From an uncultured Candidatus Actinomarina sp. (lineage in GTDB: Bacteria > Actinomycetota > Acidimicrobiia > Actinomarinales > Actinomarinaceae), in NCBI GenBank assembly GCA_902533795.1, contig CACAND010000005.1:847-64846 (forward strand): a DNA stretch of 64,000 nucleotides, given 5' to 3'. Numbering within the stretch: the first letter of the stretch is position 1; every line of letters begins with the position of its first letter. Both the position numbers and the translations under genes were made by a program. Of the stretch, positions 36,641-41,432 are shown one piece after another. The notes under the pieces are model-generated. The model saw only the letters and a program-made list of their open reading frames with translations. It was not told where the DNA came from and did not search any database.

Positions 36641-37945
36641 TTGAAAAAATATTTTGGTACCGATGGTATTAGGGGTATCCCGAAAGAAACTTTATCTCAA
36701 GAGTTAATTTCTTCAATTTGTGCATCTGTTGAAATCTTGATTGATCCTAAAAGTGTCGCCATCATATCCGACACGAGAGAATCCTCAGATGAAATTCTGA
36801 ATTGGATTTCTTTAGGCTTTTCTGAAAATGTAAAGATATATAATCATGGTATTCTTCCTTCGGGCTCAATGCCCATAATCTTGAAAAAGTTTGATTACGA
36901 TCTGGGAATTATAATTTCTGCTTCACATAATCCAGCAAATTACAATGGAATAAAATTAATTCAAAAAAATGGTTCAAAGCTTGATGATGATATCGAAATT
37001 CAAATTGAGAACAGACTAAATAGTCTTAAGTTGCCAACGAAAGGTTCGGAAATAATTAATCTTTCCGATGGGCATGATGAGTATTTACGATATTTACAGG
37101 AAATTACTGACATTAATTTTGATAATTTTGAAATAATAATTGATGCTGCAAATGGAGCTGCTTTTAGTGTTATAAAAGAATTATTAGATTCCAAAAATGC
37201 AAAATACCGAATTATAAATGACACTCCCAATGGTCTAAACATAAATGATAATTGTGGAGCAACTTCTCCGGAAAATTTACAAAATGAGATAAAAAACAGG
37301 GAAATCGGCGCTTCTTTTGACGGTGACGCTGATAGATTGATAATGGTTGATGAAGAGGGAAAAATTGTTAATGGGGATTTAATATTAACTCTTCTTGCTA
37401 AATATTTTTCTGAATTGAATAACCTAAAAAACAATATTGTCGTTAGTACCGTTATGTCTAATTACGGTTTTAAACAGGCTATGCAAAAATTTGATTTTGA
37501 TCTAATCGAAACTCCTGTTGGAGATAAATATGTTGCAGAATCAATGAATAAATATGATGCCTCATTAGGAGGTGAGCAATCGGGCCATATAATAATTGCT
37601 GATTTACTACCTGTTGGAGATGGTCTTATTACTTTAATTATGGTTTTAAAAGCCCTCGAACACTTTGGAATGACACTTTGTGATTTTAAGAATGAAAATT
37701 TATATGAGTATCCACAGAAACTTACGAACATAGAGTTAACAAATAAATTAAACGATGAAGAAATAGAATACATAAATCAAATAGCACTTGATATGTCAAT
37801 AAACAAAGATTTAGATGGCCGATATCTTATTCGAAATTCAGGTACTGAGCCATTATTAAGAGTATTAGTTGAGGCTAAAAGCGCCGAAGCAATGCAAGAT
37901 TTTTCTGACGAACTGTTAACAAAGATTAATAAATACTTAAATTAG
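36641..37945 (+). CDS. glmM: phosphoglucosamine mutase
   Basis: 434 aa, TTG start; active-site Ser in ISASHNPANYNGIK. Confidence 0.9.
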   Translation: MKKYFGTDGIRGIPKETLSQELISSICASVEILIDPKSVAIISDTRESSDEILNWISLGFSENVKIYNHGILPSGSMPIILKKFDYDLGIIISASHNPANYNGIKLIQKNGSKLDDDIEIQIENRLNSLKLPTKGSEIINLSDGHDEYLRYLQEITDINFDNFEIIIDAANGAAFSVIKELLDSKNAKYRIINDTPNGLNINDNCGATSPENLQNEIKNREIGASFDGDADRLIMVDEEGKIVNGDLILTLLAKYFSELNNLKNNIVVSTVMSNYGFKQAMQKFDFDLIETPVGDKYVAESMNKYDASLGGEQSGHIIIADLLPVGDGLITLIMVLKALEHFGMTLCDFKNENLYEYPQKLTNIELTNKLNDEEIEYINQIALDMSINKDLDGRYLIRNSGTEPLLRVLVEAKSAEAMQDFSDELLTKINKYLN

Positions 37946-37977
37946 TAAAACTTAACGATATACTTTTCTTAACGAGC

Positions 37978-38135
37978 AATTTAGCGCCAGGCCTTTAACG
38001 AGGTGACGAGGAAGTATGTTATCGAAAAATTCGGCGGATGCATACTCGGCACTGCAGTCGATATAAATTGTTAAAAACAGGAAGAAATTTCTGAACAGAG
38101 ACAATTTAACGCAGTCTTTATTTTAACCTGCTCGT
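37978..38135 (+). ncRNA. glmS leader: glmS ribozyme / GlcN6P riboswitch-like leader
   Basis: AGCGCCAG... then GACGAGGAAGUAUGUUAUCGAAAAAUUCGGCGGAUGC closely matches the conserved catalytic core of the Bacillus-type glmS ribozyme; placed directly 5' of glmS. Confidence 0.7.
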
Positions 38136-38150
38136 TGGAATGGAGAAAAA

Positions 38151-39947
38151 ATGTGTGGAATAGTTGGGTATTCAGGCCCAAAAGAACCCTTGCCAATCTT
38201 AATAAATGGATTGTCTAGATTAGAGTATCGAGGATACGACTCAGCAGGAATTGCAATTTCCGATGGGAACAAAATAACCATTGAAAAAAAAGAAGGTAAA
38301 CTCGACTTCTTAAAAGATCATCTAAAAAATAATCAAATCTCTGGAAACGTAGGCATTGGTCATACAAGATGGGCGACCCATGGCGTACCAAATGATGTAA
38401 ATGCTCATCCTCACTCGGATAACAATGAAGAATTTGCGATTATTCATAATGGGATAATTGAAAATTATGCAGAAATTAAAAAAGATCTTTTAAACGAAGG
38501 ATTTGAATTTAAGTCTGATACTGACACTGAGGTAGTAGCTGTAGAGCTTAGCAGAAAATGGAGTGGGGAATTGCTTAAAACTGTAGTGGATGTTGCAAAC
38601 TCTCTTGAAGGAACTTATGCACTCCTCGTAACTACTACTAAAGAAGAAGGAACTATCGTTGCTGGAAGATTAATGAGCCCATTAGTTTTAGGAGTTGGCG
38701 ATGATGAAGTGTTTCTTGCGTCTGATTCGGCAGCAATACTAGAGCATACAAAAAAGATGATATTTCTTGAAAATGGTGATTTTGTAGAAATTAAAAATGG
38801 TAAATATAAGTTGTTTGACTCAGACTTAAATGAAATTGAAAGAGAGATCCAAGAAATAGACTGGGAGGTCTCTGAAGCAGAGAAATCAGGATATGACCAT
38901 TTTATGTATAAAGAGATACTTGAACAGTCTGAAGTAATTGAAAGAACTATTTCGGGAAGGCTGGACACAAATTCTGATGATATTCCGATTATGTCAGATC
39001 ATGCTTCTAAATTTGAAAAAATTTGGATAGTTGCATGCGGAACTGCTTATCATGCAGGTTTATTTGGCAAAGATCTGTTTGAGAAAGTTCTTGGTGTTCC
39101 AGTAAGCGTTGAGTTAGCTTCAGAGTTTAGATACAGGGAGCCGATTGTTGGGAAAAATGATTTAGGTATTGTAATCTCACAGTCTGGAGAAACAATGGAT
39201 ACAATTGCTGCAACAGAACTGCTTAAAGAAAATGGCTCACACGTACTCGCCCTAGTTAATGTTGTTGGAAGCTCATTGGCAAGAATGGCTGATAGTGTAT
39301 TTTACTTACATGTTGGTCCAGAGATCGGTGTAGCTTCTACTAAAGCTTATTTAGGTATGCTCGTATCTCAACTAGTACTTGCTAAACATTGGGACTCTCA
39401 AAATAGATTGGATGTATCTTTTGATCAGATTGCAGAACTTCCAAATCTAATAGACAAAACAATGGCTTGCGAAGATCAAATAAAACAGATATCTGAAAAA
39501 ATTTACAAAAAGAATGACATTTATTTTATTGGAAGAGGTTTGGATTATGCATTGGCAGCTGAAGGTGCCTTGAAATTAAAAGAGATTTCATATCTGCACG
39601 CTGAAGCATTGGCAGCAGGAGAGCTTAAGCATGGTACGCTAGCTTTGATAGAAGAAGGAACCCCTGTAGTAGTTACTGCTAGTCAAAATCATCTGCTCGA
39701 TAAGACAACCAGTAATGTACAAGAGGTCATTGCAAGGGGTGCATATGTTATTGCTATTGGAGACAGTGAGTCAGAAAAACTAGAAAATATATCAAATGAT
39801 TATGTGACACTCCCAGATAGTAATGAAATACTCACTACTGTGATATCGATTATACCTTTACAATTTATTGCTTATCATGTAGCAAATAAAAATGGCCAGT
39901 CGATTGATCAACCAAGAAACCTTGCAAAGTCAGTTACTGTAGAATAA
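38151..39947 (+). CDS. glmS: glutamine--fructose-6-phosphate aminotransferase
   Basis: 598 aa starting MCGIVGY (Ntn Cys) with two SIS domains. Confidence 0.95.
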   Translation: MCGIVGYSGPKEPLPILINGLSRLEYRGYDSAGIAISDGNKITIEKKEGKLDFLKDHLKNNQISGNVGIGHTRWATHGVPNDVNAHPHSDNNEEFAIIHNGIIENYAEIKKDLLNEGFEFKSDTDTEVVAVELSRKWSGELLKTVVDVANSLEGTYALLVTTTKEEGTIVAGRLMSPLVLGVGDDEVFLASDSAAILEHTKKMIFLENGDFVEIKNGKYKLFDSDLNEIEREIQEIDWEVSEAEKSGYDHFMYKEILEQSEVIERTISGRLDTNSDDIPIMSDHASKFEKIWIVACGTAYHAGLFGKDLFEKVLGVPVSVELASEFRYREPIVGKNDLGIVISQSGETMDTIAATELLKENGSHVLALVNVVGSSLARMADSVFYLHVGPEIGVASTKAYLGMLVSQLVLAKHWDSQNRLDVSFDQIAELPNLIDKTMACEDQIKQISEKIYKKNDIYFIGRGLDYALAAEGALKLKEISYLHAEALAAGELKHGTLALIEEGTPVVVTASQNHLLDKTTSNVQEVIARGAYVIAIGDSESEKLENISNDYVTLPDSNEILTTVISIIPLQFIAYHVANKNGQSIDQPRNLAKSVTVE

Positions 39948-39952
39948 ATAAC

Positions 39953-41035
39953 ATGGATAGAGGTTACGTATACGTAAATAAGGCAAATTATTTACACAAC
40001 ATAGAAGTATTAAAAAAACTATCAAATAAAGAACTTTGTTTAGTTGTCAAAGCTAATGGTTATGGTCATGGCATTGAATGGACTGTCAAAACGGCTATGG
40101 AAGCTGGAATTAAATGGTTTGCGGTAGCAGCTATTAGTGAAGCAATAAAAGTACGTGCTCAATCTGATGAACTTAGAGTATTGTTACTTACCGAGCCATC
40201 GCTTGATGAGTTAGATAATATAGAACGACATAATATTGACTTAACAGTCTACAATGATTTTTTTATCGATGGTTTAGAAGAATCAGGTAAAGAATTTAGC
40301 ACCCATATAAAAATAGATACTGGTATGCACAGGGTTGGTTGCGAACCAGAGGATTTTATAAACCTTTATAATAAAATAAAAAAGTCTAAAACCATAAATC
40401 TAGCCGGTATATGTACCCATTTTCCATTAGCTGATGAAGAAATAGAACCAACACAAGAATCTATCGAATTATTCAAAGAAACAATTAAAGATATAGATTT
40501 AGATGATTTACTAATACACGTAGATAATTCTGGATCATCATTTTATAATTTTGATCCAACATTTAATTTATCAAGAGTAGGTCTGACAGTTTACGGGTGT
40601 AACATAACACCGGCTGAAGTAAATCAAGATTTTAAACCAACGATGGCTATAAAAACAAGAATATCAAATATTAACTACAGAAAAAAGGGAGAAGCAGTTT
40701 CTTATGGAAAAGCTTTGACTTTAGAAAGAGATACAACTGTAGCAGTATCTCCTGTTGGATACGGCGACGGGTATCCGTGGAGTACATTTCCTGATGGGAA
40801 AGTTATAGTTAACAATACATACTGTAATTTGATAGGAAGAGTTACTATGGACCAAATTCTCTATGACATTACAGATGTTGAAGCAAATATAAATGATGAA
40901 GTTGTTCTTTTGGGAAATTCAGAGAACAATGAACTTGAAATTACCGTCTACGATATTGCAAAATGGAATAATACTATTGAATGGGAAATCCTTACAAATA
41001 TTAATGAACGACTTGAAAGGGTTGAAATTGAATGA
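39953..41035 (+). CDS. alr: alanine racemase
   Basis: 360 aa, PLP-lysine motif VVKANGYGHG. Confidence 0.9.
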   Translation: MDRGYVYVNKANYLHNIEVLKKLSNKELCLVVKANGYGHGIEWTVKTAMEAGIKWFAVAAISEAIKVRAQSDELRVLLLTEPSLDELDNIERHNIDLTVYNDFFIDGLEESGKEFSTHIKIDTGMHRVGCEPEDFINLYNKIKKSKTINLAGICTHFPLADEEIEPTQESIELFKETIKDIDLDDLLIHVDNSGSSFYNFDPTFNLSRVGLTVYGCNITPAEVNQDFKPTMAIKTRISNINYRKKGEAVSYGKALTLERDTTVAVSPVGYGDGYPWSTFPDGKVIVNNTYCNLIGRVTMDQILYDITDVEANINDEVVLLGNSENNELEITVYDIAKWNNTIEWEILTNINERLERVEIE

Positions 41036-41432
41036 GATCGAGCTTAAAGAATCAGCTTTAGATGAATTTGCAAAAGACTTCGTAACAAAGTTATCAATTC
41101 CTTCAGTAGTTGGATTTAACGGAAGTTTGGGAGCTGGTAAAACTACAATAATAAAAAAGATAATTTATCACCTTGGAATCGAAGATAATGTAACTTCACC
41201 GACATTCAATATTGTAAAAAATTATCTCAAAGAAGATTTAAGTATTTACCATGTTGATCTCTACAGACTTTCGTCATTTCAAGAATTTATTGACCTTGAT
41301 CTTCCTTTGTTTGAAGAAAAAACCCTATTTTTTGTTGAATGGTCAAATCAACTTCCTAATACAAACCTCAATAATTGGACAATTGTTGATATTGATATCA
41401 TTGATGATTCAAGAAGAAAGATAAGGTTTTAA
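41004..41432 (+). CDS. tsaE: tRNA t6A37 threonylcarbamoyladenosine biosynthesis protein TsaE
   Basis: P-loop GSLGAGKTT; first in-frame ATG at 41004 implies a 32-nt overlap with alr; the track's ORF from 40893 is an over-extension. Confidence 0.75.
   Translation: MNDLKGLKLNEIELKESALDEFAKDFVTKLSIPSVVGFNGSLGAGKTTIIKKIIYHLGIEDNVTSPTFNIVKNYLKEDLSIYHVDLYRLSSFQEFIDLDLPLFEEKTLFFVEWSNQLPNTNLNNWTIVDIDIIDDSRRKIRF

Follow-up and report, generated by a model that had tools for sequence, protein, structure and literature searches.

The glmS leader of Candidatus Actinomarina very probably contains a functional glmS ribozyme (37972-38118), a reading to which we would give a probability of about 0.9 on the basis of its sequence. 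The window, which is the whole stretch of 64,000 nucleotides that was analyzed, was compared with Rfam 15 and gave a single non-tRNA match. This match is the glmS ribozyme family RF00234, found on the + strand at 37972-38118 with 84.9 bits (E = 4.2e-18) against a gathering score of 37, and model positions 1-167 of 167 are aligned, so that the hit is not truncated. An earlier note on this DNA had proposed a glmS ribozyme-like leader at 37978-38135, to be checked with this very covariance model, and the score bears the proposal out; the 5' end it gave lies within a few bases of that of the match, but its 3' end was 17 nt too long. Both motifs that it quoted are present exactly as given, AGCGCCAG at 37983-37990 and GACGAGGAAGTATGTTATCGAAAAATTCGGCGGATGC at 38005-38041, the latter being 37 nt long.

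The flanking ORFs confirm that the element is located between glmM and glmS, 5' of the glmS start, as had been stated. On the upstream side, glmM (phosphoglucosamine mutase; 36641-37945, + strand) was identified with TIGR01455 (E = 6e-112, 374.5 bits), which is a family call at the level of the E-value since the score is lower than the NCBIfam curated cutoff of 447.55. On the downstream side, glmS (glutamine-fructose-6-phosphate aminotransferase; 38151-39947, + strand) matches TIGR01135 with 754.7 bits; its product starts with Met-Cys-Gly and is 98% identical to the GlmS of Ca. Actinomarina. The 3' end of the ribozyme is found 32 nt upstream of the glmS ATG (38151), on the same strand and thus in the 5' UTR. 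A Shine-Dalgarno sequence GGAG (38142-38145, + strand), invariant in the clade, precedes the ATG by 5 nt. The conserved leader is wider than the Rfam match and fills all of the 205-nt spacer between the two genes (37946-38150). Genomes of Actinomarinales are about 1.1 Mb long with about 32.5% G+C; their coding density is 97%, and neighboring genes are separated by a median of 2 bp (PMC7771536). Within the window, one long ORF follows the next at a median distance of 1 nt, and the glmM-glmS spacer is among the few real non-coding stretches. The conservation of 205 nt between two genes in such compact genomes thus argues for a function.

Alignment to the covariance model predicts that the RNA is cut between A(-1) 37983 and G(+1) 37984 on the + strand, at the consensus A/GCGCC and in agreement with the cut 5' of G37984 that had been anticipated, and the AGCGCC at this site is invariant across the leaders of the clade. 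The CGCC at 37985-37988 constitutes the 5' strand of the P2.2 pseudoknot and pairs with GGCG at 38033-38036. These four pairs, assigned by homology to the B. subtilis numbering (PMC11602151), are invariant and complementary in 38/38 leaders. P1 (37991-38004) consists of 4 bp, GCCU/AGGU, around a 6-nt loop; all of its cells (100%) are paired, and 31 leaders have G-U as the closing pair where the other 7 have A-U. The catalytic core (38005-38046) contains GACGAGG, P2 (38013-38018 with 38041-38046), P2.1 (38007-38008 with 38023-38024) and UCGGCGGAUG. Every highly conserved position of the core consensus is matched, the identity being exact at 37983-37988 and 38005-38040, where GACGAGG, AUCGA and UCGGCGGAUG are found. 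In the B. subtilis numbering, P2.1 corresponds to C38-G55 and G39-C54, and G67 and A68 are located at the active site (PMC11602151).

The rest of the molecule also conforms to the model. P3 (38047-38060) is reduced to 4 bp compared with 6 bp in the consensus, and its loop bears the 5' strand of the P3.1 pseudoknot (38052-38055), one strand of P3.1 being known to sit in the P3 loop (PMC11602151); the 3' strand, GCAGU, is at 38111-38115. The peripheral domain (38064-38108, + strand) is made of P4 (7 bp), an A-rich internal loop and P4.1 (6 bp). The two strands of this purine-rich loop are UUAAAAA and AACAGAGA, and P4.1 is capped by the GNRA loop GAAA (38084-38087). The roles of both the GNRA tetraloop and the purine-rich internal loop have been described (PMC11602151). 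The P1-P4 architecture expected by the earlier note is thus found in the alignment with P1, P2, P3, P4 and P4.1, in which 99-100% of the cells pair, and the P2.1 pseudoknot that it had named can be formed in all 38 leaders. Plain minimum free energy (MFE) folding of the leader gave stabilities that do not differ significantly from those of shuffled sequences (z = -1.75 and -1.67) as well as non-native folds. This is expected for a pseudoknotted RNA, and MFE folding is uninformative as a test for this ribozyme.

The element is not restricted to the window. A search with GlmS, using one genome per GTDB species, gave 48 loci at 77-99% identity, labeled Candidatus Actinomarina, Actinomarinales, OCS155 or Acidimicrobiia; the next-best loci come from other phyla and do not exceed 49% identity. 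In a homology search with GlmS, the best 120 matches all belonged to Actinomarinales (76-98% identity), and no relatives from outside the order were found among them. The ribozyme occupies the same position upstream of glmS in all of the 46 Actinomarinales loci for which upstream sequence is available. A core-motif pattern recovered 45 of them and missed the last one, L028, because of one G-to-A change; this locus nevertheless scores 89.7 bits with RF00234. Twelve diverse Actinomarinales loci were compared with Rfam and all twelve matched, with 83.6-98.6 bits. The DNA flanking these loci is down to about 74% identity and the core is unchanged, its nucleotides being invariant in 38 leaders of the clade with the sole exception of the G-to-A change of L028.

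We aligned 38 distinct leaders and mapped the full structure, including the pseudoknots known from crystal structures, onto this alignment. Standard pairs were found in 96.8% of the 1817 structure cells, compared with 27-36% when the partners were slid by 1-3 columns. Changes on both sides were seen in 9 pairs, and none of 500 shuffles attained any of the observed measures. Compensatory pairs are located in P2 (1), P4 (3) and P4.1 (3), and there is little or no variation in P1 and P3. In P2, for example, the pair 38016-38043 is AU in 31 leaders, GU in 4 and GC in 3, and more than 99% of the cells of P4 and P4.1 are paired. As for the pseudoknots, the four pairs of P3.1 are always formed, and one of them (38054-38112) alternates between GC (22 leaders) and AU (16 leaders) without being broken in any, so that the alignment offers clean in-clade covariation for P3.1. 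The six pairs of P2.1 and P2.2 are complementary in all 38 leaders and invariant, with no covariation; they are thus supported by complementarity only. Altogether, these data show that purifying and compensatory evolution has preserved the ribozyme throughout the order Actinomarinales. The ribozyme is thus under selection and almost certainly active, sensing GlcN6P and repressing glmS.

From what is known of the family, the following course of events can be proposed. GlcN6P, the product of GlmS, would bind the pre-folded core as a cofactor when it accumulates, and the GlcN6P-bound RNA would then undergo self-cleavage at the bond that links A37983 to G37984. Left with a 5'-OH end, the glmS mRNA downstream of the cut would be degraded by a 5'-3' exonuclease and the synthesis of GlmS would fall. 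The use of GlcN6P as a cofactor, self-cleavage and the production of a downstream fragment with a 5'-OH are parts of the mechanism described for the family (PMC3997798, PMC5473149). In B. subtilis, RNase J1 degrades the cleaved glmS mRNA and glmS is repressed in this way (PMC3997798). RNase J has also been documented in Mycobacterium smegmatis (PMC3997798); no RNase J candidate was found within the 64-kb window.

Transcription of glmS could start from a promoter of its own. A putative -10 box, TATACT (37959-37964, + strand; TATAAT in most relatives), lies 14 nt past the glmM stop. Its T, A, T, A and final T, i.e. 5 positions out of 6, are invariant in the 38 distinct leaders, and the surrounding sequence varies. 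Such a box would set the transcription start at about A37971, only about 13 nt ahead of the cut. The predicted start is also the first base of a candidate outer helix, P0, described below. Judging from this conservation and this spacing, a dedicated -10 promoter box for glmS seems reasonable. A second reading, which we consider somewhat unlikely, is that the ribozyme is mainly an intra-operon processing site, glmS being read through from rplM-rpsI-glmM without a dedicated promoter. The chemistry would be unchanged and the architecture of the transcript would differ, self-cleavage of read-through transcripts uncoupling glmS from the upstream genes that are constitutively needed. Several observations speak for it. 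No terminator-like site was found on the + strand between 35700 and 40200, and hence none between glmM and glmS, which makes read-through transcription from glmM possible or even likely. Moreover, the glmM stop is separated from the ribozyme by only 26 nt, and the order rplM-rpsI-glmM-ribozyme-glmS is also seen on five high-GC contigs. A scan for consensus promoters did not call the box at 37959-37964, and promoter-like sites in this region are no commoner than expected by chance. Against this reading stands the TATAAT/TATACT box itself, which is conserved in the 38 leaders and lies at the right distance for transcription to begin with the first base of P0. The dedicated promoter and intra-operon processing do not exclude each other.

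P0 is not part of the Rfam consensus, the first 19 columns of RF00234 being unpaired, and it is unmentioned in the glmS ribozyme literature that we examined, including PMC11602151; this accessory feature may be new. AACGAGC (37971-37977) and GCTCGTT (38130-38136), the latter just upstream of the Shine-Dalgarno sequence, are exact reverse complements of each other. With the two A that follow in the 5' arm (37971-37979) and pairing to 38128 on the other side, a helix of 7-9 bp would connect the part of the leader that precedes the cut to the sequence ahead of the Shine-Dalgarno sequence. Both arms are invariant in the order, the 3' arm being inside the invariant block GCTCGTTGGAATGGAG. Considered pair by pair, the seven core pairs are formed in 38/38 leaders, five of them being invariant and two changing only to G-U, with no covariation. 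Pair 8 is AU in 33 leaders, UA in two (L018 and L039, where the change is compensatory) and other or unpaired in three. The energy of P0 is about -10.3 kcal/mol in every member, and a perfect leader-trailer complement of at least 7 nt is obtained in 1.5% of shuffles. For the sub-clade to which the window belongs, folding at 20 C is predicted to favor a competing hairpin over P0.

We also looked for equivalents of P0 in glmS ribozymes from metagenomes, which were sampled with a generic core pattern and confirmed with Rfam, the latter also giving their exact 3' ends. The energy of the leader-trailer duplex was compared with those of shuffled leaders and of GC-matched foreign leaders. For 40 non-redundant ribozymes, the mean z was -1.2 (t-test p = 4e-6). 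Eight of them were individually significant at p <= 0.05 (binomial p = 7e-4), and the native leader beat every foreign leader in 8 of the 40. Enclosing helices of about 16 bp (L090), 14 bp (L092, z = -4.2) and 13 bp (L101) were observed, with unrelated sequences and G+C contents, and leader-trailer helices also enclose the ribozymes of L109, L131, L144 and L159. By the same duplex test, no significant equivalent was found for the Bacillus-like, top-scoring metagenome ribozymes L099, L154 and L137 or for that of Halanaerobacter (L048).

That P0 would be a recurrent accessory helix, variable between lineages, is thus plausible and not established, given the simplicity of the controls and the post hoc origin of the idea. 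The transcript would probably pair its initial 7-9 bases with 38128-38136 and in this way enclose the ribozyme. The 5' end of the uncleaved mRNA would then be paired and shielded from nucleases, a protection that self-cleavage would remove. We put forward, as a tentative proposal, that P0 exists in Actinomarinales and in about a fifth of the other lineages and provides a protected 5' end that is severed by self-cleavage. Its role could be the protection of the 5' end or the insulation of ribozyme folding. If true, P0 would make the stability switch sharper, or would at the least keep ribozyme folding insulated in an AT-rich genome, and a ribozyme known mainly from work on Bacillus-type constructs would gain a structural and regulatory element. 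One could also imagine that GCUCGUU pairs with GACGAG of the core (6 bp) and acts as an anti-ribozyme; this is possible on paper and nothing supports it.

P0 also led us to consider whether the leader could be a translational switch in addition. In the uncleaved RNA, P0 would hold GCUCGUU and leave the Shine-Dalgarno sequence open; after cleavage, the 13-nt 5' fragment would leave and a hairpin (38115-38127/38134-38146) would close over the Shine-Dalgarno sequence. P0 and this hairpin are indeed mutually exclusive, because both use 38134-38136, and P0 is favored by 3-9 kcal/mol if the hairpin is counted with its proximal 8 bp alone. However, when the RNA is constrained to the native ribozyme fold, the Shine-Dalgarno sequence is unpaired with a mean probability of 0.23 in the uncleaved state and 0.21 in the cleaved one; in the sub-clade of the window, this probability is 0.0 before and after cleavage. 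Furthermore, the hairpin shows no covariation, and its part covering the Shine-Dalgarno sequence is not conserved in L018, in L039 and in leaders of the L025 type. Finally, the 8-bp duplex between the fragment and its target amounts to -12.1 kcal/mol, which means that the 5' fragment need not leave. With the modeled accessibility unchanged and a hairpin devoid of covariation, an occlusion of the Shine-Dalgarno sequence driven by cleavage is not supported, and we regard such a switch as very unlikely.

Repression of glmS through self-cleavage remains the reading that we prefer, and it applies to a genuine actinobacterium. The earlier note had observed that the gene order looks actinobacterial and had wondered whether the lineage assignment needed care. 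The order in the window is truA-rplM-rpsI-glmM-ribozyme-glmS-alr-tsaE-tsaB-rimI-tsaD-groES-groEL, the arrangement seen in Mycobacterium and other Actinobacteria, and the host is Candidatus Actinomarina, a genus placed in Actinomycetota by the NCBI taxonomy and in Acidimicrobiia by GTDB. Over 9.8 kb, the window shares 98.3% DNA identity with the single-cell genome AG-333-G05. The first observation was thus right and the doubt was unfounded: the assignment is sound, and the glmS ribozyme does occur in an actinobacterium. One could also see in the ribozyme a relic in decay, or an artifact of assembly or of contamination from a Firmicute, without function in this genome. This idea could draw on the abundance of glmS ribozymes in Firmicutes, where they are commonest, and on the shortening of P1 and P3, but its probability is negligible given that the same syntenic site is occupied in 46 independent single-cell and metagenome-assembled genomes from several studies, that the catalytic nucleotides are invariant and the helices show compensatory changes, and that the local G+C agrees with that of the genome (29-37% in the window) in a locus 98% identical to Ca. 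Actinomarina over 9.8 kb.

Some features of the surrounding DNA may be recorded as well. The longest ORF for tsaE (40893-41432) overlaps the end of alr (39953-41035) by 143 nt; the TsaE profile covers residues 52-177 only, and the true start is therefore probably near 41040. Genes are uniformly on the + strand until about 53.9 kb and in mixed orientation beyond. Between about 52000 and 60000, the GC skew falls to approximately zero or below, and the cumulative skew has its maximum near 54-56 kb.

The leader has a practical consequence for annotation. Many of the GlmS calls deposited for the clade are 618 aa long (P0011, P0013, P0014, P0016, P0020 and others) versus 598 aa. P0020, for example, begins with MNRDNLKQSLLQPARWNGDI ahead of the true Met-Cys-Gly start. 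The 20 extra residues are a translation of the 3' part of the ribozyme and of the P0 arm (window 38091-38150), from which it follows that these starts were mis-extended into the ribozyme, by 20 codons. Another protein, P0101 (L080 237-2117), is a GlmS of 626 aa in which an internal stretch of about 28 residues is repeated in tandem (KEINGNIGIGHTRWATHG.PSDENAHPH, twice); this duplication may be real or an assembly artifact. Its locus added no leader diversity.

The metagenome ribozymes give a wider view of the genes associated with this RNA. In the highest-scoring matches (L099, L154 and L137), GlmM is encoded upstream and GlmS downstream of the ribozyme. Five contigs with a G+C of 0.61-0.69 (L092, L100, L118, L126 and L139; RF00234 80.2-98.8 bits) have the order (truA)-rplM-rpsI-glmM-ribozyme-glmS in common with the window, but they differ from it by their higher G+C and by P0 sequences that are unrelated, L092 having a strong enclosing helix. 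We considered this synteny as a basis for assigning these contigs to Actinomycetota and rejected it: a similar order rplM-rpsI-glmM-glmS is present in Limnocylindria (Chloroflexota), and this synteny is consequently not diagnostic of the phylum. Pattern matches of very high G+C (0.65-0.80) were likewise discarded as evidence for high-GC hosts; most of them have no GlmS or GlmM nearby and one, L086, failed Rfam, so that they are probably due to chance. In five other contigs with a G+C of 0.50-0.58 (L081, L114, L142, L150 and L158; RF00234 61-88 bits), the ribozyme is not followed by glmS. It precedes an operon that encodes a stand-alone acetyltransferase resembling the C-terminal part of GlmU (about 220 aa) and GlmM (TIGR01455, 538 bits). 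A nagB gene (glucosamine-6-phosphate deaminase; TIGR00502, 369 bits) is present in four of these five operons, after glmM in L158, and is not seen in the sequence covered for L150. This suggests that the ribozyme could control an alternative, NagB-based route to GlcN6P.

The taxonomic reach of the glmS ribozyme also deserves attention. The McCown census of 2011 and 2012 is said to have already included a few Actinobacteria, and two papers on Actinomarina genomes make no mention of a glmS ribozyme. This RNA is regarded as a feature of many Gram-positive bacteria (PMC5473149). The motif has been listed in Bacillales, Staphylococcus, Clostridiaceae, Chloroflexi and Deinococcus-Thermus, with zero glmS ribozymes in Corynebacteriaceae and Mycobacteriaceae (Sun et al. 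2013, supplement 4). It can now be placed in an abundant order of marine Actinobacteria. The host is among the smallest and most streamlined of free-living bacteria, and yet it has kept a 205-nt non-coding spacer for a metabolite-sensing ribozyme that would act on the synthesis of cell-wall precursors.

A comparison can finally be drawn with the glmS ribozymes of Bacillus subtilis, B. anthracis and Thermoanaerobacter tengcongensis (RF00234). The Actinomarina RNA shares with them the A/GCGCC cleavage site, the core GACGAGG...AUCGA...UCGGCGGAUG and the complementarity of P2, P2.1 and P2.2 that underlies the double pseudoknot. P3 and P3.1, the A-rich internal loop of P4, the GNRA tetraloop of P4.1 and the location in the glmS 5' UTR are also in common. 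In contrast to these bacteria, the host is an ultra-small marine actinobacterium with about 33% G+C, and the helices are AU-rich. P1 has only 4 bp and a 6-nt loop, P3 has only 4 bp, the leader preceding the cut would be about 13 nt long, and the candidate P0 is added. This compact and AU-rich variant represents a natural minimal version of the ribozyme. The glmS ribozyme of Actinomarina is thus an ordinary member of a known RNA family, in a host lineage where it had not been discussed before.
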